A stretch of DNA of 32,000 bases. It comes from Trichlorobacter lovleyi SZ. GTDB taxonomy: Bacteria > Desulfobacterota > Desulfuromonadia > Geobacterales > Pseudopelobacteraceae. The stretch spans positions 630,001-662,000 of the forward strand of contig NC_010814.1 in NCBI RefSeq assembly GCF_000020385.1, read 5' to 3'. The position numbers were made by a program, and so were the translations under genes. Below are positions 2,580 to 32,000 of this stretch, piece by piece; position 1 is the first letter of the stretch, and every line of letters begins with the position of its first letter. The notes under the pieces were generated by a model. The model did not search any database. It saw only the letters and a program-made list of their open reading frames with translations, and had not been told where the DNA came from.

Positions 2580-2966
2580 TTAATCCTCTTCGTATGATAC
2601 TGCCTGTCCCTTATTCATCGCCTTGCGCAGCCAGGGCGGTGGATTGCCCCGCAATACTTCCTGAAACTTTGCCACGGTTTCCGGCAGGCTGACTTCAGTG
2701 TTGGTCTTCATCGGGTGGATCTTCAGGGCCACCAGCTTTGCTGCTGCCGGGCCGCCGATCTGCATCGTGTAGACAATGGCACAGTCGGACAGAATTTTAG
2801 CCCGTGCTGCGATCCGATCCTCTTCATCAGAACCGTGTGCCTCGGTCTTGACTGATTCGATAAATGATGCCTGGTCCGGTCCCACTTCCCAGATCTGGAA
2901 GCTCTCACACTGCCCAAAATGCTGATCAATCATACTGCCGTCGGTTGTCGTGAATGCGATTTTCAT
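2580..2966 (-). CDS. nifX: Nitrogen fixation protein NifX
   Basis: The start was moved to the ATG at 2966, which follows an AAGGAGG Shine-Dalgarno. MKIAFTTTDGSMIDQHFGQCESFQIWEV and the C-terminal PPPWLRKAM tail are NifX-like. Confidence 0.8.
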   Translation of the reverse strand: MKIAFTTTDGSMIDQHFGQCESFQIWEVGPDQASFIESVKTEAHGSDEEDRIAARAKILSDCAIVYTMQIGGPAAAKLVALKIHPMKTNTEVSLPETVAKFQEVLRGNPPPWLRKAMNKGQAVSYEED

Positions 2967-3002
2967 GGTTAGCCTCCTTTGCGAAAAGCACGCAAATGGT
3001 TT

Positions 3003-3018
3003 AGCACAGAACATGCCA
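3003..3018 (-). promoter_or_regulatory. sigma54 (-24/-12) promoter for the nifX operon
   Basis: The minus strand reads TGGCATGTTCTGTGCT, with correct GG-N10-GC spacing. It lies about 37 nt upstream of the nifX ATG. Confidence 0.7.
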
Positions 3019-3280: not shown

Positions 3281-6200
3281 ATGATTTTCAGTGAAGATTC
3301 GCGTGTCAAAATCCCCTGCATCCTGCATCTGGTCCGGCTTGGTTACCAGTATCTCTCCCTCAAAAATGCCGTATGGGATGAAGAAACCAATATCTTTCCA
3401 GAGTTGTTTCGTCGCTCCATCGCCCGGATCAATCCCGGCACTGGCAACGATGAGATTCAACGTTTACTGGATGATGCCAGACTCTCGTTAGATAACGAAG
3501 ATCTGGGCAAAGCCTTCTATGAGAAACTGACAGATCGATCAGGCATCAGGCTGATCGATTTTGAGAACTTTACCAACAACAGCTTTCACGTCGTAACCGA
3601 GCTGACCTACAAAAATGGGGATGATGAATTCCGGCCCGACATTATTCTGCTGATCAACGGTATGCCGTTGGTCTTTATTGAAGTCAAAAAGCCCAACAAC
3701 CAGGAAGGTGTCCTGGCTGAGCGCAACCGGATCATAAAACGTTGCCAAAATAAAAAGTTCCGTCGCTTTATCAATATCACCCAGTTGATGGTGTTCTCCA
3801 ATAACATGGAGTATGACGACGGTTCATCGCAACCGATTGAAGGGGCTTTCTATGCCAGTCCCTCCTACGATGAGCCGATCTTTAATTATTTCCGTGAAGA
3901 AGAGCTGCTCAGTCTGGAGACTCTGCTGGCCCCGGAAGAAGACGAGCTTGAAAACGCCGTCCTTAAAGACAACAACCTGAACGTGATCAAGCACAGCCCT
4001 GAGTTTCTCAGCAACAAATCGCCGGATACACCAACCAACCGGATCTGCACCTCCCTGTTTAGCCGGGAGCGTCTGTCGTTTCTGCTGCAATACGCCTTTG
4101 CCTATCTGAACGAGTCGGAAGGCCTGCACAAGCATGTTATGCGTTATCCGCAGCTCTTTGCCACCAAGGCGATTGAGACAAAGCTGGATTCCGGTGTCCG
4201 CAAAGGGATTATCTGGCATACCCAGGGCAGCGGCAAGACCGCGCTGGCCTACTATAATGTGCGTTTTTTAACCGATTACTTCCAACGACGCTCCATTATC
4301 CCCAAATTTTACTTCATTGTTGATCGGATAGATCTATTGATCCAGGCGCAGCGTGAGTTCACCAGTCGTGGTCTGATTGTGCATACCATTAGCACCCGCG
4401 AGGACTTTAGACGTGACATCAAGACTATCCAGGTGATCCATAATCACACAGGAAACCCCGAGATAACTGTGGTCAACATTCAGAAGTTTGAAGATGACCC
4501 GGGCGTAGTACGGGTTGAAGATTACGATATCAGCATCCAGCGGGTCTATTTTCTTGATGAGGTTCACCGCAGCTACAACCCCAAGGGCAGCTTTCTTGCC
4601 AACCTGAGCCAGTCTGACCAGAACGCCATTAAGATCGGTCTGACCGGTACGCCATTGCTGGGGGACGACTACAACTCCCGCGCCCTGTTTGGCGACTACA
4701 TCCACAAGTATTACTACAACGCCTCCATTGCCGACGGCTATACCCTGCGCCTGATCCGCGAAGAAATTGCCACCAATTACAAACTTTCCCTGCAGGAGGC
4801 GCTGGCTGCTGTAGAACTGCAGCAGGGGGATCTGGATAAAAAGCTGATTTTTGCCCACCCTCGCTTTGTGGAGCCGATGCTGGACTACATCATCACTGAC
4901 TTTGAAAAGAGCCGGGGGGCGTTGAACGCCCCTGGCATCGGTGCCATGGTGATCTGCGACAGCGCTGAACAGGCCCGGCAGATGTTTGAGCAGTTCCAAT
5001 CCCGCTTTGCGCCTTCAGAGGTTATTGTGCAGCCCCCCTGCACCAGTGACAGCTATGCCACTGACCTGCCTCTGGCTGCCGATCCTGCGCCAACCTACGC
5101 AGGGCAGCAGAAACAGGCCACCAGGGTAAAAACTGCAGCCCTCATCCTGCATGATGTGGGCAATAAGAATGAGCGCAAGCAGTGGATGGAGGATTTCAAG
5201 GCTGGCAAGATAGAGATCCTGTTCGTCTACAACATGCTACTGACCGGCTTTGATGCCAAGCGCCTGAAAAAACTCTATCTTGGCCGGGTGATCCGCAAAC
5301 ACAACCTGTTGCAGGCCTTAACGCGTGTCAACCGTCCCTATAAAGAGTTCCGCTACGGTTACGTGGTTGACTTTGCCGATATCCGCAAAGAGTTTGACGC
5401 CACCAACAGAGCCTATTTTGAGGAGCTGCAAGATGAGCTGGGGGATGAACTGGAGCATTATTCCCACCTGTTCAAGTCTCCAGAAGAGATCGAACAGGAG
5501 ATCGAACAGATCAAGGACATCCTGTTCCGTTTTGATACGGAAAATGCCGAGTCATTTTCCCGGCAGATCAGCCAGATTCAGGACCGTAACGTGGTATTGG
5601 CCCTTAAAAAGGCCTTGGCCGATGCCCGCAGCCTCTACAACCTGATCCGTCTGCAAGGTGAATACGCCTTCCTGCAGCAGCTTGATTTCCAAAAGCTGAA
5701 CCAGCTCTACCGTGAAACCTGTAACCACCTTGACCTGCTGAACCTGAAAGAGAGTATTGAGAACAGCGCCGACACCACAAATCTACTTAACGTAGCCCTG
5801 GAAGAGATTCTGTTCATGTTCACCAAGGTAAAGGAAGAGGAGCTGGTACTGGCTGACCGGCTCAAGAACTGTCTGCGCCAGACCCGCGAGGCGCTGGCTG
5901 GCAACTTTGATCAGCAGGACCCGAAGTTCATTAGCTTGAAGGAGGAGCTGGAGCGACTGTTCAAGAAGAAGAATCTAAGCGAAGTGACCCAGGAAGAGAT
6001 GAATGCCAACATCGGCGCACTTAGCCAGATCCATGAGCAGGTTAAGGAACTGAACCGCCAGAACAACCAGCTGCGGGCCAAGTACCAAGGGGACGCCAAA
6101 TATACCCGCATCCACAAACGACTACTGGAAAGCAATATACTCAGCGAAACAGAACGCCGCATCTTTGAGGCCCTGACCGGCGTCAAACAAGAGGCCGACG

Positions 6201-14880: not shown

Positions 14881-14920
14881 TGCAAACGGGCGTCCCGGTT
14901 TTCCGGGGCGCCTGTTTGCA
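14881..14920 (+). terminator. Hairpin terminator after the small-ORF pair
   Basis: The stem tgcaaacgggcgtcccgg / ccggggcgcctgtttgca is 18 bp with 2 mismatches and a tttt loop. Confidence 0.65.
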
Positions 14921-15060: not shown

Positions 15061-15144
15061 GATATACGAAAATACTCAACTACCCGCGAGGGTAGGGCGG
15101 AAAACCCACGGGTCTCTCTGAGACAGCCGGGCTACCGAAATATC
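15061..15144 (+). promoter_or_regulatory. GEMM-I class cyclic-dinucleotide riboswitch aptamer (c-di-GMP or 3'3'-cGAMP)
   Basis: P1 is GAUAU/AUAUC. One hairpin is ACUACCC-GCGA-GGGUAG with a GNRA loop. The junction GGCGGAAAACC resembles ACGCAAAGCC. The 3' part CACGGGUCUC..GAGACAGCCGGGCUACCGAAA matches the recalled GEMM-I core (GGGUC...GACAGCC.GG.U.CCGAA). Confidence 0.75.
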
Positions 15145-15176
15145 GATTTATCGATAGGCAGGTACCCGGCTTTTTT
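15126..15176 (+). terminator. Riboswitch expression-platform terminator
   Basis: gccgggctacc (15126-15136, shared with the aptamer 3' strand) pairs with ggtacccggc (15161-15170). Six T residues follow. Confidence 0.75.
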
Positions 15177-15300
15177 GCGTCTTGTGCCGCAGAGAAACGG
15201 GGGGATCTACACAATCAAGCAAAGGAGAAGACAACCAAAGATGGGAATAGCATTCAGTAACGCATTCAACAATTCCGGAGCAATGGGAAAGGAGCAGGGT

Positions 15301-17379
15301 ATGAAACCTCTGATGACAAAGCTGGGCACTATGATAGGGGGGCTGATTCTCGCATTTTCGGCACTTGTACTTGCCGGATGTGGCGGCGGGGGTAACAGTC
15401 CCGGGGTCTCTTCGCAGGTGGTAACGGGAACTGCGGCTGTCGGTACGCAGCTGTCCGGCCAAGTGACCCTGAAGGATGCATCAACACCGTCAAAGCAAAA
15501 AACTGCCGTGATTGGTAGTGATGGCTCCTTTGCCTTTGATGTTACCGGCATGAAGGCCCCCTTCATCATTCAGGCAACCGGCAGCGCAAATGGTCAGAAT
15601 CATACCTTGCTCTCGTTTGCATCGGGTACCGGCATTGCCAATGCCAACCCGCTGTCCCATGCACTGGTGACACTTGCCTGGGGCAGCGCTAATTCCGGAG
15701 ATGTCTTTACTAATCCGGATGAGCAGAAGCTCAGGAAGATTCAGGACGGGTTAACGGCTGCTACTCAGGACCTCTTGATGATGCTCAACCCGCTGCTTGA
15801 CCTGTATGGCGCTGCAGGAAAAAATCCGATCAGCTCTCCCTATCGTGCCGACCATAGCGGGCTTGACGGCATGTTTGACTTCGTCACCGTCGATATCACA
15901 GGCGGTACCCTGACGGTTTCCAATAGAGGCACCAATGCCCCGATCTTCTCCTGCGCCATCAACAACATCAACAGCGGGACCTTTAACGCCAACAATATGC
16001 CGCACAGGATGACCGTGCCGGCTGCCCCGACCAACTTGACTGCCGTTGGCGGTGCAGGGCAGCTGACACTTACCTGGAGTGCCGTCAGTAATGCCGCCTC
16101 CTATACGATTTACTACGCCACTACCAGCGGTGTAACCCCGGCAAACGGGATAAAGGTTGCAAATGCCACCAGTCCGGCGGTCCTGAGCGGTCTTGCTGAT
16201 GCAACTACCTACTACTGCGTTGTTACAGCCGTAAACAGTGCCGGAGAAAGCGTCGCCTCTACCCAGGCCACGGCCACGACAAACGTTGCCGCCCCGGTTA
16301 TTCCGGCGGCACCGGGCGGTCTGATTGCCACTGGCGGCACCAGGCAGGTCAGTCTTTCGTGGAGTGCGGTAAGCAATGCAACTTCGTATAATGTCTATTA
16401 CGCAACCAGCAACGGCGTGACAAAGGTGAATGGCACAAAGGTTTCAAATGCAACCAGCCCGCTGGTGTTGAACGGGCTGGCTGATGCAACCAGCTATTAC
16501 TGTATCGTGACCGCCGTTAACAGTGCCGGCGAAAGTGCCGCTTCCGTGCAGGCTGCCGCGACAACCCTGCCTTCAACACCGCCGCCTGCACTACCGGCAA
16601 CGCCGTCAAACCTGGTTGCCGCCGGCGGCACCAACCAGATCACACTTTCCTGGTCTGCTGCCAGTAATGCAACCTCCTATAACCTCTACTGGTCAGCCGC
16701 TTCAGGTGTTACAACCGCAACCGGCACCAAGGTCTCAGGCGTGACCAGCCCCTACGTAAAAACCGGTCTGGCTGCCGGGACCACCTATTACTTTGTCGTA
16801 ACCGCGGTCAATAGCGTGGGGGAAAGCAGTGCCTCGGCCCAGGCATCGGCAACCACCAGTGCTCCGCCTCCAACGGTGCCGGCTGCCCCAACCGGCGTGA
16901 CTGCCACCGGTGGAGCCAATCAGGTAAGTCTTGCCTGGTCGGCCGTGTCCGGAGCAACCTCCTACAACCTCTACTGGTCCACGGCATCCGGGGTGACCAA
17001 GGTCAACGGGACAAAACTGACAAATGTGACCAGTCCGTATCTTCATAGCGGTCTGGCAGCCGGTACCAGCTATTACTATATCGTCACCGCAGTGAACAGT
17101 ACTGGAGAAGGGGCCGCATCAGCCCAGGTCTCGGCAACCACCAGTGCTCCTTCACTCAGCTGTGGCACCTGTCATGCCATTCCACCTCAGCTTGGTCAGC
17201 ACGATTTCCACTCAGGTGTGGGGATCGGGTGTGTAACCTGTCATGGAAGCGGTTACAGCACAACTACGGTTAATGCCGCTACCCATATGAACGGTGTCAA
17301 GGACCTCAGTGCAACAATCGGCTGGAATGCAGCCGGCAGGAACTGCACAAATTCATGCCATGGGCGCAAAACATGGTGA
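15301..17379 (+). CDS. Lipoprotein with four fibronectin-III-like repeats and a C-terminal c-type haem-binding domain
   Basis: The start was set at the ATG at 15301, after an AAGGAG. The signal peptide ends in the lipobox LAGC. Four repeats of about 96 aa follow (..LTWSAVSNA.SY.IYY..SGVT...G.KV...TSP....GL...T.YY..VTAVNS.GES..S). The C terminus has CGTCH, CVTCH and CTNSCH. Confidence 0.8.
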   Translation: MKPLMTKLGTMIGGLILAFSALVLAGCGGGGNSPGVSSQVVTGTAAVGTQLSGQVTLKDASTPSKQKTAVIGSDGSFAFDVTGMKAPFIIQATGSANGQNHTLLSFASGTGIANANPLSHALVTLAWGSANSGDVFTNPDEQKLRKIQDGLTAATQDLLMMLNPLLDLYGAAGKNPISSPYRADHSGLDGMFDFVTVDITGGTLTVSNRGTNAPIFSCAINNINSGTFNANNMPHRMTVPAAPTNLTAVGGAGQLTLTWSAVSNAASYTIYYATTSGVTPANGIKVANATSPAVLSGLADATTYYCVVTAVNSAGESVASTQATATTNVAAPVIPAAPGGLIATGGTRQVSLSWSAVSNATSYNVYYATSNGVTKVNGTKVSNATSPLVLNGLADATSYYCIVTAVNSAGESAASVQAAATTLPSTPPPALPATPSNLVAAGGTNQITLSWSAASNATSYNLYWSAASGVTTATGTKVSGVTSPYVKTGLAAGTTYYFVVTAVNSVGESSASAQASATTSAPPPTVPAAPTGVTATGGANQVSLAWSAVSGATSYNLYWSTASGVTKVNGTKLTNVTSPYLHSGLAAGTSYYYIVTAVNSTGEGAASAQVSATTSAPSLSCGTCHAIPPQLGQHDFHSGVGIGCVTCHGSGYSTTTVNAATHMNGVKDLSATIGWNAAGRNCTNSCHGRKTW
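16018..17160 (+). repeat. Four tandem coding repeats (period 285-291 nt) encoding the FN3-like modules
   Basis: Repeat starts (CCG GCx xCx CCx ...) are at 16018, 16303, 16594 and 16879. Confidence 0.8.
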
Positions 17380-17393
17380 TACGGTTTCTGTGA

Positions 17394-17439
17394 GATACAA
17401 AACGGGCGCCCCGGAAAATCGGGGCGCCCGTTTTGTATC
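17394..17439. terminator. Bidirectional terminator between the cytochrome gene and the convergent deacylase operon
   Basis: Perfect 20-bp stem gatacaaaacgggcgccccg / cggggcgcccgttttgtatc with loop gaaaat. Confidence 0.85.
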
Positions 17440-20248: not shown

Positions 20249-21190
20249 TTACTGAAAGAACTCTTCTGCCAGCGCATTATGGAACCCGGCCAATAAACTG
20301 AGTACCTGCTCCAGAAATTCATGTAGACCGTTGGTGAAGACCGTTTCCCCGTTTGAGGATGCCAGTAGTGACTGCAGGGCGGCAAATGCCGCGGCGGTCT
20401 TTTCCTTGCCCTCCAGCCCGATGTTGGCCAGGGCAGCTCCGGCACGGTCAACGGAAAAGACCAGCGAGCGGGGGAAGTCATGCTCAAAGACGGCAAAGTC
20501 AACCACCGCCTTGGGTTCAAAGCCGCTCTGGTTGGTGCGCCGGAACGCCTCAAAACCGGACAGAGATTTAAGCAGGGCAGCCCATTGGTAGTAGTCAAGT
20601 GCGGAGCCCACCAGATGAATATCCGGCAGAATGATATGGTATTTGACATCCAGAATCCGGGCGATCATATCGGTCCGTTCCACGCAGCCACCCAGCTGGC
20701 AGAAGGCATAGGCCTCGCCCCGCATCATGGTGGCCGCCAACAGACCGTTGAAACGTGCCACCTGATTACGCAGCTCCACAAAGAGGTTACTGGCCTTTTC
20801 CAGGGTGATGCTGCCCCGTAACCGCTCGTTGTAGGTCATCCAGATATCATTGACCGCCTCCCACATCTCCTTGGAGATCCGGTCCCGGGCCACCCGGGCG
20901 TTTTCCCGGAACAGCCGCAGACAGGTGCGGATTGAGTTGTTGTTGGTGCGGCCACCGCAGACAAACTGCAGCACCCGCTGGGTGGTGATGGCATCATCGC
21001 CGTACAGCTCGACATATTGGGGCAGAGCAGCGGTTATCTCCAGAACCGGTCGCCATTTTTCCTCTTCACCCATATCCTCTTCCGCCTCCACCAGATAGAG
21101 CAGGTTGATCTCCATCAGACGGGCGGTTTCGCCGGCTCTTTCCAGATATCGGGCCATCCAGTACATTGAATCAGCTATGCGGCTTAACAT
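20249..21190 (-). CDS. Alpha-E domain protein (COG2307)
   Basis: The start was set at the ATG at 21190, after an AAGAGG. The MLSRIADSMYWMARYLERAGETARL opening is characteristic of this family. Confidence 0.75.
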   Translation of the reverse strand: MLSRIADSMYWMARYLERAGETARLMEINLLYLVEAEEDMGEEEKWRPVLEITAALPQYVELYGDDAITTQRVLQFVCGGRTNNNSIRTCLRLFRENARVARDRISKEMWEAVNDIWMTYNERLRGSITLEKASNLFVELRNQVARFNGLLAATMMRGEAYAFCQLGGCVERTDMIARILDVKYHIILPDIHLVGSALDYYQWAALLKSLSGFEAFRRTNQSGFEPKAVVDFAVFEHDFPRSLVFSVDRAGAALANIGLEGKEKTAAAFAALQSLLASSNGETVFTNGLHEFLEQVLSLLAGFHNALAEEFFQ

Positions 21191-21219
21191 ATCAGTAACC
21201 TCTTTGCTGCGGCTGCGAT

Positions 21220-21318
21220 AAAAGTCCATCTGCTTCGTTGCAGTCGTCGCAGGCCATTCAACGTAGCGCTGCTACGCCTCACACCCTGCTCCTCCTGCGC
21301 CTGGCATCTGGAGCTTTT
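21220..21318 (-). repeat. Structured intergenic repeat, copy A' (element sense is the minus strand)
   Basis: In element orientation, the outer stem is AAAAGcTCCA/TGGACTTTT and the middle stem is GCAGG/CCTGC. The apical hairpin is GGCGTAG-cagcg-CTACGTT. It aligns block by block with copy C. Confidence 0.65.
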
Positions 21319-21357
21319 CTCACAACCGTCTTGTTTATAATCATTCCGTTAACTGAT

Positions 21358-21469
21358 GTGCATAGTTTTCGCAAGGTCAAGGCGGTCGAGGCTTTGGGCG
21401 GAGGCGTACATCCAGTACGCCGCACAACCTAAGCTGAAGACCAACGTAGAGATTGCGGAAACTATGTGC
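21358..21469 (+). repeat. Structured intergenic repeat, copy A (element sense is the plus strand)
   Basis: The outer stem is gtgcatagttttcgc/gcggaaactatgtgc. The conserved block caaggtcaaggcgg is present. The middle stem is GCTTtGG/CCtAAGC and the apical hairpin is ggcgtac-atcca-gtacgcc. The conserved tail is ccgcacaacc..ccaacg.agagattgcggaaa. Confidence 0.7.
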
Positions 21470-21471
21470 CT

Positions 21472-22926
21472 CTACTCAGCCAGGACCCAGGTGTCTTTGC
21501 TTCCACCACCTTGAGAAGAGTTCACCACCAGTGAGCCTTTACGCAAGGCCACCCGCGTCAGTCCGCCAGGCACAACCTGAATATCCTCGCCATAGATCAC
21601 AAACGGCCGCAGATCCAGGTGGCGGGCCTCCAGCTCACCATCCATGTAACAGATATGCCGTGAGAGGTAGACCACCGGCTGGGCGATGTAGTTGCGGGGA
21701 TTTTCCAGCACCCGGTCCATAAACTCCTTGCGCAGGGCCGGGGTGGAGGAGGGCCCCATCAGCATGCCGTAGCCGCCGGATTCACTGACCGCCTTGACCA
21801 CCATCCGCTCCATGTTGTCAAAAACATATTCCCGGTCGGTCGCATTGGTCATCTGGTAGGTGGGTACGTTTTTCAGAATCGGCTGCTGCCCAAGATAGTA
21901 ACGGATGATGTCCGGCACAAAGGGGTAGACCGCCTTGTCATCGGCAATGCCGCTGCCCGGTGCATTGACGATGGCGACATTGCCTGCCCGCCAGGCATTG
22001 ATTACCCCGGCAATCCCCAGTGATGAGTCGGAGCGGAAGATCAGCGGATCAAGGTAGTCGTCATCAATCCGGCGGTAGATCACATCCACCCGCTTCAGCC
22101 CTTTGGTGGTCTTGAGATAGACGATGTCGTTGATGGTGACCATGTCGCGCCCTTCAGCCAGCTCGATCCCCATCTCCTTGGCCAGGAAGGTGTGCTCAAA
22201 ATAGGCAGAGTTGTAGATGCCGGGGGTCAGCAATACAATTTCAGCTGTTCCTTTGCCGCGGGGTGAGAGGCAGCGCAAGGCATCCAGCAGCAGTGACGGG
22301 TAGTGCTCAACCCGGCGTACCCGGTATTTGTTGAAAAATTCCGGCAGAATGCGCCGTTCAATTACCCGGTTTTCAATCATGTAGGAGACACCGGAGGGGG
22401 TACGCAGGTTGTCTTCCAGAATCAGGAAATCACCCTGTTCATCACGGATAATGTCAATGCCGCTGATATGGGTATAGATGCCTCGGGGCGGGACAATGCC
22501 AACGATCTCACGCCGGAAGTCCTTGCCCTGGTAGATCAGTTCCGGCGGAATCACACCGTCCTTGATGATTTTCTGTTCGCCGTAGAGGTCTTCCAGAAAC
22601 AGGTTCAGCGCCTTGACCCGCTGCTTGAGGCCGGATTCAATCCGGCTCCACTCCGGTGCGGTGATGATGCGGGGGATCAGGTCAAAGGGCCAGATCCGCT
22701 CGATCCCTTCTTCGCTCTCGCCGTAGACCGTAAAGGTGACCCCTTCGGTCTGCAGTGCCAGCTGGGATTCGTGATCTTTGGTCTCCAGTGCATTGTTGCC
22801 GGTGGCGCGGATATGATCCCAGAGCAGGCGGTAATGGTCACGGGGACTGAAGTCGTCGGCATAAAACTCGTGGTAGGACGTCTTGGGCCCGGAGCTGGCG
22901 GGGCTGGAGAGTGGCGGCATGTACAA
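21472..22926 (-). CDS. Circularly permuted type-2 ATP-grasp protein (COG2308)
   Basis: 484 aa with an AGGAGG Shine-Dalgarno 7 nt upstream. Long family-typical blocks are present (ERIWPFDLIPRII, LEDNLRTPSGVSYMIENR, GNVAIVNAPGSGIADDKAVY, GGLTRVALRKGSLVVNSSQGGGSKDTWV). Confidence 0.85.
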   Translation of the reverse strand: MYMPPLSSPASSGPKTSYHEFYADDFSPRDHYRLLWDHIRATGNNALETKDHESQLALQTEGVTFTVYGESEEGIERIWPFDLIPRIITAPEWSRIESGLKQRVKALNLFLEDLYGEQKIIKDGVIPPELIYQGKDFRREIVGIVPPRGIYTHISGIDIIRDEQGDFLILEDNLRTPSGVSYMIENRVIERRILPEFFNKYRVRRVEHYPSLLLDALRCLSPRGKGTAEIVLLTPGIYNSAYFEHTFLAKEMGIELAEGRDMVTINDIVYLKTTKGLKRVDVIYRRIDDDYLDPLIFRSDSSLGIAGVINAWRAGNVAIVNAPGSGIADDKAVYPFVPDIIRYYLGQQPILKNVPTYQMTNATDREYVFDNMERMVVKAVSESGGYGMLMGPSSTPALRKEFMDRVLENPRNYIAQPVVYLSRHICYMDGELEARHLDLRPFVIYGEDIQVVPGGLTRVALRKGSLVVNSSQGGGSKDTWVLAE

Positions 22927-22986: not shown

Positions 22987-23003
22987 AAGCATAGGCTGTG
23001 CCA
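22987..23003 (-). promoter_or_regulatory. sigma54 promoter for the ATP-grasp operon
   Basis: The minus strand reads TGGCACAGCCTATGCTT. It matches the nifH promoter at 16 of 17 positions. Confidence 0.75.
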
Positions 23004-23184: not shown

Positions 23185-24654
23185 CTAGCGCATCAACTCA
23201 AAGTCACGATCTTCACAGGTCTCATCCTTGATGTCGATGAACTTGTTGCAGATCTCGGTCAGCATGTTGACGGCACCCTGGTAACCGATGATCGGGTAGC
23301 GATGCTTGTTGACCCGATCAAAAATCGGGAAGCCGAAGCGGAACAGCGGGATCTTGGCATCACGGGCGGCAAACTTGCCGTGGCTGTCGCCGATGATGGC
23401 ATCGACCGGATCGGTCATCAGCAGTGAACGCAGATGCCAGAGATCCTTGTTCATGTAAATCTTGCAGCCTTTACCAAACTCGGAACCGTCAAGAAGTGCC
23501 TGCAGCTCTTTTTCAAGCTTCTTGGAACCACGGCTGCAGAGGATGTGGTGTGGATGGGCGCCCATTTCCAGCAGGAAGGAGACATAGCCCAGCAGGTAGT
23601 CCGGATCACCGTAGACGGCAAACTTCTTGCCATGAATATACTGATGTGCGTCAGTGATGGCATCTACGGCACGCCCACGCTCGTTTTTCAGTGAAGCAGG
23701 CACTTCCTTGCCGAACAGCTCAGCCACTTTCATGATAAAGGCATCGGTCTTTTCAATACCCATCGGCATCGGCATGCTGACATGCTTACCGGAGTAGTTG
23801 TCCTTGATAAAGCTGAAGGTCTTGGGTGTTGCGTAGGGCCCCAGGGTTATCGTTGCCTTGCCGTTGATGGAGTCTGCAGCATCCTCCAGCTTGGTGCCAC
23901 CGGCGTAAATATGGTAGTGACCATCACACGGTGAATCAAAGCTGTCGCTGATATCTGCCAGAACGGTGTGGGGGATGCCGAACTCTGTCAGAATTCGCTT
24001 GTACTCACGGTAGTCGCCGGTATTGAAGTCGCAGCCAGCGATCAGATTCAGCTTGCCGGTGCAGCGTCCTTCGATCTGCTTTCCTTCGGTCAGGTTCTGG
24101 AGAATCGACACCAGCATTGAATCATAACCGTGGATATGGGTGCCGTTGAAGCTGGGGGTGTTGGCATAAGGCACCGGCATATCTTTGGGCACATGACCCT
24201 TCTGACGGGCATTCTTGATGAAGGCGGTCAAGTCGTCGCCGATAACCTCAGGCATGCAGGAGGTGAAGACGGCTATCATTTTTGGCTTGTACAGGGCAAC
24301 GGCGTTTTCCAGACCTTCGTGCAGGTTATTCTGGCCGCCAAACACCGCACCGTCCTCGGTCATCGCGTCTGATACTGCCGGAGCAGGTTCGCGGAAGTGA
24401 CGGTTAAGGGTTGAGCGGTAGTAGGAAGCACAACCTTGTGAACCATGCACAAACGGCAGGGTGCCTTCAAAACCGTGGGCAGCCAGCTGGGCTCCCAAAG
24501 GTTGGCAGGCATGGGCCGGGTTGATTACCAGTGCCTGGCGGGCAAAGTTTTTCTCCCGGTATTCTTCAGTGTTTATCCAGTTCTGAACCCGGTCTACTTC
24601 TTCGGGTGTGGTCTCGACTATCTTCTTTACTTCGAGTCCTAGTAAGTTTGACAT
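23185..24654 (-). CDS. nifK: Nitrogenase MoFe protein beta chain (NifK)
   Basis: 489 aa. INPAHACQPLGAQLAAHGFEGTLPFVHGSQGCASYYRS is diagnostic for NifK, and the gene directly follows nifD. Confidence 0.95.
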   Translation of the reverse strand: MSNLLGLEVKKIVETTPEEVDRVQNWINTEEYREKNFARQALVINPAHACQPLGAQLAAHGFEGTLPFVHGSQGCASYYRSTLNRHFREPAPAVSDAMTEDGAVFGGQNNLHEGLENAVALYKPKMIAVFTSCMPEVIGDDLTAFIKNARQKGHVPKDMPVPYANTPSFNGTHIHGYDSMLVSILQNLTEGKQIEGRCTGKLNLIAGCDFNTGDYREYKRILTEFGIPHTVLADISDSFDSPCDGHYHIYAGGTKLEDAADSINGKATITLGPYATPKTFSFIKDNYSGKHVSMPMPMGIEKTDAFIMKVAELFGKEVPASLKNERGRAVDAITDAHQYIHGKKFAVYGDPDYLLGYVSFLLEMGAHPHHILCSRGSKKLEKELQALLDGSEFGKGCKIYMNKDLWHLRSLLMTDPVDAIIGDSHGKFAARDAKIPLFRFGFPIFDRVNKHRYPIIGYQGAVNMLTEICNKFIDIKDETCEDRDFELMR

Positions 24655-24729: not shown

Positions 24730-26175
24730 TTAGAATGGTGACTGCACCAGCTTCCAGGTCGGGCTGTTGATTGCCATATCCACGTCGCGTGCAAATACCT
24801 CAAAGCCTTTGTAGCCGTGGTAGGGGCCGGAGTAGTCCCAGCTGTGCATCTGACGGAACGGAATGCCCATTTTCTGGAAGACATATTTTTCCTTGATACC
24901 GGAGCCGATCAGGTCCGGCTTCAGGGCATCGGCAAACTTTTCAAACTCGTATTCGGATGGATCGTCGTACACCACCGTGGCATCAGGCATCTCGGGTGCG
25001 GTACGGTCATAGTCATCGGTGTGGGCAAATTCATAGCCGGAACCGATGCAGTCCATGCCAAGATCTTCGTAGGCGCCGATGGTGTGACGTGGACGGAGAC
25101 CACCCACAAGCAGCATTACCTTTTTGCCGTCCAGGCGTGGCTTGTACTGCTCGATAATTCCCTGCATGATCGGATCATACTTGGCGATTACCGCCTCAAC
25201 CTTCTCCTTGATGGTGTCGTCAAACAGGGCTGCCAGCTTACGCAGGCTTTCCTTGATCTTGGTCGGGCCGAAGAAGTTCAGCTCAATCCAGGGAATGCCG
25301 AATTTTTCTTCCATCACCTTGCACATATAGTTCATGGAACGGTAACAGTGGATTACGTTGAGCTTTACGGTATGGGTGGCCGCAATCTTTTCCAGTTCAC
25401 CATCGCCGGTCCAGACCGCTTTGACGTTAAAGCCACACTCTTCCAACAGCGGCTTGGTGGACCAGGCGTCACCACCGATGTTGTATTCACCGATCAGAGC
25501 GATGTCATAGGGCGATTCAGGTTCGGCGTACTCACGGGTGCCGATGATATAGTCACGGATGGTGTCGTTACTGATGTGGTGGCCAAGTGATTGGGAAACA
25601 CCACGGAAACCTTCGCAGTTACAGGGGATGATCGGCAGATCCAGCTCCTTGGCAGAAGTCTTGGCCACGGAGTTGATGTCGTCACCGATCAGGCCGACCG
25701 GGCATTCGGACAGTACCGAGATCCCTTTGGCCAGCGGAAACAGGTCGTGGGCCTCTTCCAGCAGGGTCTTCAGCTTTTTATCGCCACCGTAGACAATATC
25801 CTTTTCCTGGAAGTCGGAGGTGAACTGCATCGGAAAACTGGTAACGCCGACAATGCCGCTTACCATGTTACGCCGGGTACCCCATGAATACCAGCCGCAG
25901 CCAACCGGGCCGTGGGAAACGTGAACCATGTCGCGGATCGGTCCCCAAACCACCCCTTTGGCACCTGCGTAGGCGCAGCCACGGGCAGACATAACGCCGG
26001 GAACCGTCTTCTTGTTGGACTTGACACAGGCTGAACCTGATCCCTGGTCGTTGGCACCGATATGCGGAGCGCGTTTTTTTCTGGCCTTTTCCGGATACAC
26101 CGACAAGGTTTCAGCTATCAGCGCCTCGGTGGATTCTTTGGTGATGCCCTCTATTTTACGTATCTTGTCTGACAT
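24730..26175 (-). CDS. nifD: Nitrogenase MoFe protein alpha chain (NifD)
   Basis: 481 aa with [36 protein letters not shown] and [11 protein letters not shown]. Confidence 0.95.
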
Positions 26176-26207
26176 AGGTATTCTCCTTGAGATGTTCAGA
26201 AAAACGG

Positions 26208-26317
26208 GGACTTTTTCACAAGGTCAAGGCGGATGATGCCGGTTCGAGGGAGGTGTACGAAGCAGTGCGCCGCACAACCGAATCAGGAACCTAACGCCGA
26301 GACTGCGGAAAAAGACC
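26208..26317 (+). repeat. Structured intergenic repeat, copy B, filling the nifH-nifD spacer
   Basis: The outer stem is GGaCTTTTTC/GAAAAAGaCC. The conserved block caaggtcaaggcgg is present. The middle stem is CCGGTTCG/CGAATCaGG and the apical hairpin is ggtgtac-gaagca-gtgcgcc. The conserved tail is ccgcacaacc..ctaacg..gagactgcggaaa. Confidence 0.7.
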
Positions 26318-26322
26318 GTTTC

Positions 26323-27210
<888 letters not shown>

Positions 27211-27341: not shown

Positions 27342-27358
27342 AAGCATAGGCCGTGCCA
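27342..27358 (-). promoter_or_regulatory. sigma54 promoter for nifHDK
   Basis: The minus strand reads TGGCACGGCCTATGCTT, with GG-N10-GC spacing. The leader is about 140 nt. Confidence 0.8.
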
Positions 27359-31083: not shown

Positions 31084-31097
31084 GTCCAGCTCCTTAT

Positions 31098-31218
31098 TCC
31101 GATTTCAGTTCAAGGATGCTATCAAGGCGGCGAGGAATTCGGCGACGCAGGCGTACACGCAGTACGTTGAGGAGCCGATGACGAGCCAACGAAGAGAGGG
31201 CCTTGAAATGGAATCGGA
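31098..31218 (+). repeat. Structured intergenic repeat, copy C, filling the mqnD-ykgJ spacer
   Basis: The 19-nt terminal inverted repeats are ttccgatttcagttcaagg / ccttgaaatggaatcggaa. The block tcaaggcgg is present. The middle stem is TCGGC/GCCGA and the apical hairpin is ggcgtac-acgca-gtacgtt. The tail is ccaacgaagaga. Confidence 0.7.
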
Positions 31219-31219
31219 A

Positions 31220-32000
31220 CTAGATGAATAGCGGCGCCTCCGATGCAGGTACCAGCCCGGCCGCCTCAGCCCGGCGCAGCAGCTCGGCAATGGCCTGCTC
31301 TCCCTCTGCTCCCAACTGCTGCGAGAAGTCATTGACATACAGCCCGATATGGGCAGCGCAGACCTGTTCATTCATCTCCTGGGCATGCTCCCGGATATAT
31401 TGGGTGGCTGCCGCAGGATTGTTACGGGCATACTCCACACCATCGGCCAGGGCTTGTTCAATGGCGCGGATGGTGTCAGCCCCCAGGCTGCGTTTGGCCA
31501 CAATCCCGCCCAGGGGGATCGGCAGGCCGGTCTCGTTCTCCCACCACTCTCCCAGATCCACCAGCTGGTGCAGGCCAAAGCCCTGATAGGTAAAGCGGGA
31601 TTCGTGGATGATCACCCCGGCGTCGGCCCGCCCGGTCATGACCGCATCCATGATCTCATGGAACGGCATCTCCAGAAAGGTGGTCAGACCGGGGGCATAC
31701 AGACGCATCAGCAGGTGGGCCGTGGTGTAGCGGCCCGGAATGGCAATGGTCTTGCCCTGCAGCGCAGCAGGATCAAGCGGTTCCTTAGCCACCAGCAGCG
31801 GCCCGCAGCCGCGCCCCAGGGCGCTGCCGGCCCGCAGCAGGGCGTACTGTTCGCGGAAGTGCCCCAGGGCGGCATAGGAGACCTTGGTCACATCCAGTAC
31901 CCCTTTCACGGCCAGCCGGTTGAGGGTCTCCACATCCTCCAGCCGCTCGTTGAAGCTGTAGCCGCCGGTATCCACCAGGCCATGCACCAGCGGATAGAAC
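31220..32000 (-). CDS. mqnD: 1,4-dihydroxy-6-naphthoate synthase (futalosine pathway MqnD), 5' end beyond the window
   Basis: The frame stays open to the window edge (..FYPLVHGLVDTGGYSF). VKGVLDVTKVSYAALG, GSALGRGCGPLLV and GVIIHESRFTY are MqnA/MqnD-family blocks, with MqnD-like spacing. Confidence 0.7.
   Translation of the reverse strand, partial: FYPLVHGLVDTGGYSFNERLEDVETLNRLAVKGVLDVTKVSYAALGHFREQYALLRAGSALGRGCGPLLVAKEPLDPAALQGKTIAIPGRYTTAHLLMRLYAPGLTTFLEMPFHEIMDAVMTGRADAGVIIHESRFTYQGFGLHQLVDLGEWWENETGLPIPLGGIVAKRSLGADTIRAIEQALADGVEYARNNPAAATQYIREHAQEMNEQVCAAHIGLYVNDFSQQLGAEGEQAIAELLRRAEAAGLVPASEAPLFI

Follow-up and report, generated by a model that had tools for sequence, protein, structure and literature searches.

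The closest described relatives of the hairpin repeat studied here are the "predicted short RNA elements" Gmet_R1001-R1024, listed by Aklujkar et al. (2009, BMC Microbiol 9:109, Additional file 4), who also gave their G. sulfurreducens counterpart, GSU0160.1, and their central palindrome, GRCGTAGCGCTGCTACGCC. That study offers an alignment made with BLAST and calls the elements "predicted short RNA"; it lists no copies from Trichlorobacter lovleyi and contains no analysis of structure or covariation, no evidence of mobility, no account of stop-codon placement or strand asymmetry, and no link to the forms that we call types II and III. We analyzed a 32,000-nucleotide (nt) stretch of the T. lovleyi SZ genome (contig NC_010814.1, positions 630,001 to 662,000; hereafter, the window), in which the family has four copies, A, A', B, and C. 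Copy B occupies the spacer between nifH and nifD, much as one Gmet element lies between the cotranscribed dapAB and dapL. Target-site duplications, inverted repeats, polymorphism among strains, and placement on stop codons argue for a mobile element over a dedicated regulatory RNA. We conclude, with a probability of roughly 0.6, that the family behaves as a small mobile element resembling a MITE (miniature inverted-repeat transposable element) and that copy B is an old insertion that took the place of a short native nifH-nifD spacer.

Several other systems invite comparison. The Correia elements of Neisseria and the ERIC/IRU elements of enterobacteria are MITE-like hairpin repeats of 100 to 160 bp that are cotranscribed with their neighbors (see Table 1 of Delihas 2011). 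They share with the Geobacter repeat its size, an imperfect palindrome spanning the whole element, an intergenic location in either orientation, and a short TA-containing duplication (TA in Correia); we also count as a likeness that they fold in mRNA with orientation-dependent effects on neighboring transcripts. The Geobacter repeat differs in having no sequence similarity to them and in possessing an internal core common to several terminal types. REP/BIME elements and REPINs, which are mobilized by RAYT transposases, are also multicopy extragenic palindromes, located mostly downstream of genes, in which compensatory change keeps the hairpin, and REP elements stabilize upstream mRNA. However, REPs are 20 to 40 nt long and lack a target duplication, and REPINs are inverted REP doublets, whereas the Geobacter repeat is a single hairpin of 110 to 125 nt whose arms are not palindromic and whose type II form has a duplication; membership in REP/REPIN was rejected on architecture, a RAYT gene not having been sought. 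The Chunjie MITE of Geobacter uraniireducens Rf4 (Chen et al. 2008) comes from the same bacterial group and sits in an operon without disrupting it, but it is 178 to 235 bp long and A+T rich, with 21-bp inverted repeats and 9-bp direct repeats; its size, composition, and duplication length mark it as a different family. Stem-loops that fix the stoichiometry of operon transcripts (selective RNA processing and stabilization), such as the nifH1 stem-loop of Anabaena variabilis, offer a functional analogy only. In Anabaena, nifH mRNA outlives nifD and nifK mRNA, and loss of the stem-loop shortens its half-life. In both organisms a hairpin stands next to nifH in a polycistronic nif transcript, but such stem-loops are local and single copy, and the one in Anabaena marks a 5' processing site.

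Copies A and B align over their full length with Gmet_R1002, R1004, R1017, R1022, and R1024, read on the opposite strand from the one given in the preliminary description of the window, and A' aligns with the R1006/R1003-like subtypes of the 2009 list. The likeness extends to a length of ∼110 nt, an intergenic position, the blocks TTTTCCGCAATCTC...CCTTGACCTTGCGAAAA, and the palindrome or its GTAC variant: A' holds the central palindrome of the 2009 family, GGCGTAGCAGCGCTACG, and has GGCGTAGCAGCGCTACGTT where A, B, and C have the compensated variant GGCGTAC-N5-GTACGCC, as do Gmet_R1022 and R1023. The apical pair that distinguishes the variants is C-G in 24 copies and G-C in 11. Judged by these alignments, the repeat is the Gmet_R1001-R1024 family and was already catalogued. 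The preliminary description had not recognized it as a named RNA family. In this it agrees with Rfam, in which a search with 4,227 models at the gathering threshold gave as its sole window match a c-di-GMP-I riboswitch elsewhere, with no match overlapping any copy at E ≤ 10; the repeat is, nevertheless, one that had been described before, an outcome that the preliminary description had named as refuting it. A full-text literature search for the motif or GSU0160.1 returned the 2009 paper alone; the G. lovleyi genome paper makes no mention of these repeats, and a 2008 survey of stem-loop families does not cover Geobacter.

All forms share a core, TCAAGGCGG, then GGAGGCGTAC-loop-GTACGCC, then CAACGCMGAGAT, set in a rod-like hairpin whose helices vary freely yet remain complementary. 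Type I (A, B, and A') has the ends GAAACG.../...CGTTTC; type II (C) has TTCCAATT... inverted repeats and a 3-bp TNA target duplication; and the longer type III, found in metagenomes, reads TA-GTGCCCATCC...(38-nt left module)...GTTTCCAAT...core...GGATGGAAAC-TA. Elements measure 110 to 190 nt, and their apical loops and stems vary in length by non-multiples of 3. An open frame runs through the purine-rich strand of type II; on inspection it is broken between copies by the variable loop lengths, and a coding role was rejected. The element is thus short (<300 bp) and without coding capacity, as the definition of a MITE asks.

Flanking sequences of type II, whose terminal inverted repeats are TTCCAATTTCAAATCAAGG and its complement, carry the signature of a target-site duplication. 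The trinucleotides on the two sides are identical in 32 of 60 copies, compared to 12.3 ± 2.7 after shuffling (maximum, 23 in 10,000 shuffles). These identical flanks include 14 TTA/TTA, 13 TAA/TAA, 2 TGA/TGA, and 2 TCA/TCA, with no TTA/TAA mixes; TNA duplications are typical of some IS5-family groups. Copy C itself has unlike flanks, TTA and CTA. The role of terminal inverted repeat falls to the outer stem in type I, and in type III the repeats are GTGCCCATCC and GGATGGAAAC. Direct-repeat tests of 1 to 6 nt on type III were negative apart from the TA flank: of 54 copies, 45 have T as the first nucleotide to the right and 52 have A as the second, and the left side is less regular.

The presence of the repeat also varies among closely related strains. 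The 282-nt segment with A and A' is absent from two strains with nucleotide-identical nifD and ∼99% identical flanks (L001 and L003) and from L004; at this site, all three have instead a spacer of 42 nt that contains a C5/G5 hairpin repeat of an unrelated kind. The last codons of the gene upstream of the pair differ as well, which makes replacement of an allele likelier than clean insertion. The nifD-nifK spacer of Geobacter sp. FeAm09 contains a type I copy of independent origin, which has the same orientation and directly follows a TAG; in Geobacter sp. AOG2 and Oryzomonas this site is empty, with a TGA stop. The nifH-nifD spacers of AOG2, FeAm09, and Oryzomonas lack the element. The filled alleles, at A + A' and in the nif spacers, look like segment replacements rather than clean insertions. 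An empty site for copy C was sought in contigs with an identical neighboring protein, and copy C was present in seven of seven. Three independent short-read contigs (L131, L132, and L133) start inside the element, 67 nt upstream of the gene that adjoins copy C; such contig ends fit a repeat that breaks assemblies.

We refer to the orientation of the preliminary description as the R strand and to its complement as the A strand. In 51 of 118 type I/III copies, a long opposite-strand open reading frame (ORF) ends exactly at the 3' boundary of the R strand, with TAG (36 cases), TGA (8), or TAA (7); no peak of ORF ends is found at the other boundary. The usual TAG consists of the flanking TA plus the first G of the element, and nifH ends likewise, its TAG running into GAAACGG. 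In type II, 34 of 60 target duplications coincide with a stop codon. Copies thus sit on the TA of stop codons, so that the gene retains its stop. The simplest reading, we infer, is a TA/TNA target preference: stop codons would be safe TA/TNA sites in G+C-rich genomes, and insertion would regenerate the stop. We know of no such placement, nor of the one-strand G·U/G·A bias described below, in Correia or ERIC elements. A fixed place right after stop codons, together with a strong orientation bias relative to transcription, would also suit a dedicated cis-acting structured RNA in operon transcripts, acting as an intercistronic processing or stability module or as a device for translational coupling after stops, with spread being secondary.

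Covariation, too, favors such an RNA. The preliminary description had proposed a common hairpin architecture with conserved internal-loop blocks and a different middle stem in each of the four copies, and RNAfold reproduces these stems; folding z-scores of the copies on the R strand range from -4.4 to -6.8. On a sequence-only MAFFT alignment of 41 copies, not fitted to structure, and a hand-drawn structure of 43 pairs, 86.3% of cells pair, compared to 73.3% after shuffling and 35 to 46% with the partner slid. Both sides have changed in 30 of the 43 pairs and in 247 cells, against 91 expected, and none of 500 shuffles reaches any observed measure. For 72 covariance-model matches, mostly from outside the seed, the corresponding figures are 87.1% pairing, 63.0% after shuffling, and both-side change in 39 of 43 pairs, in an alignment that leans toward structure because it was fitted to the model. 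When middle-stem arms were compared without any alignment, cognate arms paired at -10.7 kcal/mol and noncognate arms at -6.1 kcal/mol, the cognate ranking best in 8 of 16 cases. Alignment-based and alignment-free tests agree; thus, the compensatory variation is real, and the fold is supported by covariation. Internal loops conserved across phyla point in the same direction.

Inverted repeats arising by chance, or common intrinsic terminators or promoters with an accidental likeness to one another, would share the intergenic position and the hairpin form, but this explanation is refuted by the searches. A covariance model built from 41 related copies, with C and A' outside the seed, was run over the whole window with filters off and gave exactly four significant matches, A, B, C, and A', the number counted previously; the next distinct site scores below 13 bits. 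Covariance-model E-values go down to 1e-30, and hundreds of related copies lie elsewhere. A degenerate core pattern matches three times (A, B, and C), with none expected by chance, and a profile search (nhmmer) finds the four window copies with E-values of 1e-20 to 6e-11. Scans for sigma-70 promoter-like sequences and, on both strands, for terminator-like sequences found no site overlapping any of the four copies; an intrinsic terminator, with a G+C-rich stem and a T run, was rejected on this ground. We regard chance resemblance as having a negligible probability. Integron attC sites, which have RYYYAAC...GTTRRRY end boxes and form cassette arrays beside intI, were also rejected: by inspection, such boxes are absent, and the copies are dispersed between housekeeping genes.

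The strand on which the fold is constrained is not the one that genes usually transcribe. In 126 of 128 copies, folding is stronger on the R strand than on the A strand, with a mean difference of 10 to 14 kcal/mol. Helices of the R strand contain 290 G·U pairs and only 23 single A·C mismatches (an A·C is a G·U on the other strand), as well as 94 A·G mismatches and only 5 C·U; these counts are non-independent, as copies share ancestry, and the asymmetry is present in every subtype. This shows that structural constraint acts on the R strand in single-stranded form, where G·U and G·A are tolerated. Relative to both flanking genes, the R strand of type I is antisense in 15 cases and sense in 2 (counting copy B, which a crude gene caller missed); for type II the numbers are 25 and 9, and for type III, 10 and 5. 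In the window, it is antisense at B, A, and C and sense at A'. Host mRNAs, therefore, preferentially carry the weaker-folding A strand, a pattern that does not fit simple selection of an RNA fold in the message and is not fully explained. Selection of the fold, as proposed earlier, is borne out by the covariation; the RNA function that it implied is not, as the well-folding strand is usually antisense, including at nifH-nifD. For a cis-acting RNA, selection on the mRNA fold would predict the reverse of what is seen, since it is the mRNA strand that has the A·C and C·U mismatches and the weaker fold. The existence of both orientations, exemplified by A', also speaks against it, as do the target-site duplications and inverted repeats of type II, the differing presence between near-identical strains, and the lack of a matching Rfam family. 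The R strand may instead be the form required for mobilization or for binding a protein, and the orientation bias may have arisen because messages with a very stable hairpin are selected against.

Copy B allows these ideas to be weighed at a single site. As first described, one element takes up nearly all of the 147-nt spacer; with its outer stem, it reaches slightly beyond the 26208 to 26317 originally assigned to it. The spacer is unusually long, as had also been noted, because it measures 57 to 58 nt in the relatives AOG2, FeAm09, and Oryzomonas rubra (NifD 94 to 95% identical), and the excess length is due to copy B. A small native hairpin, CAGAGGC-N7-GCCTCTC, is conserved in the short spacers without copy B (L134, L135, and L136, ∼1243-1300) and may be the native counterpart of whatever copy B does in the transcript. 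Orthologs of copy B, with the same junctions and orientation, occur in L004 (nifD 97.6% identical to that of the window at the nucleotide level) and in metagenome contig L200 (NifD 87% identical in amino acids). Between these two, copy B differs at 14% of columns, and nifD differs at 37% of its 4-fold degenerate sites; one portion of the middle stem is wholly different and complementary in each. Such low divergence suggests that copy B is constrained where it stands, but conversion by other copies could produce a similar picture. It favors a cis-acting RNA, as does the native hairpin at the same place in relatives and the tuning of nif transcripts by stem-loops in Anabaena. The copy in the window tells the opposite story: it diverges from its L004 ortholog by 19%, although 4-fold sites differ by only 7%, and thus outpaces synonymous sites. 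It has two G·U pairs in the apical stem and a partly unpaired middle stem, and it folds markedly worse than its orthologs (about -41 kcal/mol for the element alone; -49 kcal/mol for the whole spacer, compared to -65 in L004 and -60 in L200). It looks partly decayed or converted. On balance, we consider a dedicated cis-acting RNA an unlikely account of the family.

Copy B places a hairpin in the nifHDK mRNA right after the nifH stop. This mRNA is read from the minus strand of the window and has the reverse complement of the R strand, which is the plus strand here; in this sense, copy B is predicted to form a hairpin of -35 to -43 kcal/mol directly past the stop. Such a hairpin could block 3' exonucleases, or it could be a site of processing through which transcript levels of nifH become independent of those of nifDK. 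Given the Anabaena precedent, an effect of copy B on the stability or levels of nifH relative to nifDK transcripts is plausible by analogy.

Other strains have, in these spacers, short hairpin repeats of unrelated, C5/G5-rich families (e.g., CCCCCTTTTCAAAGGGGGATTGAGGGGG and CCCCCTCCTGGATCAGGAGGGGG); the sites include that of A + A' and nifD-nifK spacers (L001 14704-14746; L004 1666-1810; L137 1208-1301 and 2746-2898). In L138 (NifD 89% identical), an A+T-rich element of ∼200 nt with long inverted repeats, GCGCGGATGACGCGGAT...ATCCGCGTCATCCGCG, is found in both the nifH-nifD and the nifD-nifK spacers (1069-1301 and 2746-3014). Several kinds of hairpin repeat seem to gather in nif spacers.

Several observations weigh against a mobile, MITE-like element. 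Direct-repeat tests of 1 to 6 nt revealed no target-site duplication in type I, of which just one flank is conserved, as TA. No autonomous insertion sequence or transposase-sized interval between matching terminal repeats was found in ∼1.6 Mb of loci. The internal core, and not the termini, is the most conserved part, which is unusual for a MITE. The mobile-repeat view does not account for the constrained strand being the one kept out of mRNA, and the low divergence between the L004 and L200 orthologs of copy B implies in-place selection, which a purely selfish element does not predict.

Some of these points would be explained by an element that works as single-stranded DNA, its hairpin being recognized, for instance, by an HUH tyrosine transposase (REP-associated or IS200/IS605-like) or by a protein of replication or recombination. 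Constraint on one strand, as seen in the G·U/A·C and G·A/C·U counts, would then be expected, as would a type I that lacks a duplication and always has TA at one end, and the gene-orientation bias could be a proxy for replication direction, on which GC skew across the window gives no information. Type II, however, with its clear 3-bp duplication and long inverted repeats, has the typical marks of cut-and-paste DDE transposases. In most cases the constrained strand is the template strand of transcription; in genes co-oriented with replication, it is thus the leading-strand template, not the lagging-strand template that IS608-type elements use. The element is three to four times as long as a REP hairpin, and no HUH/RAYT-type transposase gene turned up, with no search aimed at one. 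We judge this alternative quite improbable, and less probable than a cis-acting RNA; a MITE-like element remains our preferred reading.

A core that is more conserved than the termini suggests that it has a function of its own. Taken further, the core (TCAAGGCGG / GGAGGCGTAC-loop-GTACGCC / CAACGCMGAGAT in a purine-rich rod) would be a module that functions as single-stranded nucleic acid and has a dedicated protein partner, carried by at least three MITE backbones across several phyla, with some copies, such as the one at nifH-nifD, co-opted by the host as intercistronic elements at stop codons. We put this forward as a doubtful idea. If it were true, the strand mismatch would point to an undescribed mechanism, e.g., one acting on antisense transcripts or on the DNA strand that serves as template.

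The four window copies, all intergenic, and their surroundings are listed in Table 1. The window's NifD is 100% identical to proteins named as from T. lovleyi (formerly Geobacter lovleyi). Copies A and B are ∼75% identical overall, with 78% identity over a block of 49 nt; A' and C are only distantly related and belong to other subtypes. Copy A lies between an ATP-grasp gene and an Alpha-E gene and begins 2 nt past the TAG of the upstream gene. Copy A' is inverted relative to A and is the sole copy of the four whose well-folding strand is in mRNA. The CTA beside copy C is the TAG stop of a menaquinone-biosynthesis-like gene.

Table 1. Repeat copies and other features of the window (positions count from its first nucleotide).
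Feature	Position	Strand	Details
Copy B, type I	26197-26324	+	In nifH-nifD spacer; covariance model 75.6 bits, E 3e-20; fold -41.6 kcal/mol on +, -35.3 on - (RNAfold)
nifH-nifD spacer	26176-26322		147 nt, occupied by copy B
nifH stop codon TAG	26323-26325	-	Abuts/overlaps end of copy B; mRNA ...GCC TAG GAAACGG...
nifH	26323-27210	-	Adjoins spacer holding copy B
nifD	24730-26175	-	Other side of copy B spacer
nifK	23185-24654	-	Same strand as nifH and nifD
Copy A, type I	21351-21474	+	Covariance model 109.8 bits; fold -54.2 kcal/mol, z -6.8
Copy A', type I subtype like Gmet_R1006/R1003	21208-21332	-	29.2 bits, E 2.6e-6; fold -47.1 kcal/mol on -
Polymorphic segment with A + A'	21191-21472		Strain comparison
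ATP-grasp gene	21472-22926	-	
Alpha-E gene	20249-21229	-	
Copy C, type II	31095-31219	+	Covariance model 33.2 bits, E 1.7e-7; fold -52.4 kcal/mol
Copy C with its inverted repeats	31097-31219	+	Terminal inverted repeats TTCCGATTTCAGTTCAAGG / CCTTGAAATGGAATCGGAA
Copy C flank TTA	31094-31096		
Copy C flank CTA	31220-31222		
Menaquinone-biosynthesis-like gene	31220-31987	-	
c-di-GMP-I riboswitch	15064-15139	+	Rfam RF01051, 44.2 bits
Gene for 734-aa protein	15175-17379		
G+C-rich hairpin	14884-14917		
G+C-rich hairpin	17394-17439		
Sigma-54-type promoter-like sequence	27343-27358	-	∼130 nt upstream of nifH
Sigma-54-type promoter-like sequence	22988-23003	-	∼60 nt upstream of gene cluster after nifK

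The superfamily is multicopy and common in Geobacterales/Desulfuromonadales. Scans of representative genomes and of metagenomes each yielded at least 120 stretches with the repeat. Among the genome matches listed, most come from Geobacter, Oryzomonas, Trichlorobacter, Geoanaerobacter, Pelobacter, and other Desulfuromonadales, and related forms occur in Syntrophus, Syntrophorhabdaceae, and Desulfobacteraceae, as well as in bins labeled Planctomycetota, Gemmatimonadota, and Bacteroidetes. Among 72,556 plasmids searched with BLAST, none matched copy A or copy C. Geobacter sp. AOG1 (L056 1-8000) has five type I copies within 8 kb in one common orientation, each following an apparent plus-strand ORF of what seems to be one operon; their outer stems differ, and each is self-complementary. 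Some copies are themselves interrupted. Two type II copies from different genomes (L010 ∼3372-3396 and L087 ∼1740-1765) carry at the same position a 24-nt insert, TGTCCTGAGCGAAGTCGAAGGGCC or a near match, which is probably a further mini-repeat that has nested there. In some type I copies, foreign sequence breaks the element directly after CGCACAA (L119 109-296; L252 ∼715-900); the sequence interrupting the L252 copy appears to be another copy, suggesting nested insertions.

Other features of the window are of separate interest. The c-di-GMP-I riboswitch lies just upstream of the gene for a 734-aa protein with four tandem repeats of 285 to 291 nt, for which homologous contigs show fibronectin type III domains; near-identical G+C-rich hairpins, AAACGGGCGCCCCGG...CCGGGGCGCCCGTTT, flank this unit. 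The two sigma-54-type promoter-like sequences, TGGCACGGCCTATGCT and TGGCACAGCCTATGCT, fall within a 38-nt repeat of 74% identity, one upstream of nifH and the other upstream of the cluster of ATP-grasp, Alpha-E, transglutaminase, and AstE-AspA genes that follows nifK. The ATP-grasp/Alpha-E cluster may be co-regulated with nitrogen fixation; in total, sigma-54 pattern matches are no more numerous in the window than chance would give.

Three results appear to be new, if modest: the placement on stop codons that regenerates TAG, the core that is shared by several terminal types and more conserved than the termini, and the constraint on the usually untranscribed strand. For annotation, our findings mean that the copies should be assigned to a repeat family already known from Geobacter and not be called a new regulatory RNA; assemblies of short reads break at them, and they can pass for small RNAs. 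Because nif spacers collect several unrelated hairpin repeats across lineages, hairpins after nifH may be tolerated there or may be useful for the ratio of NifH to NifDK.

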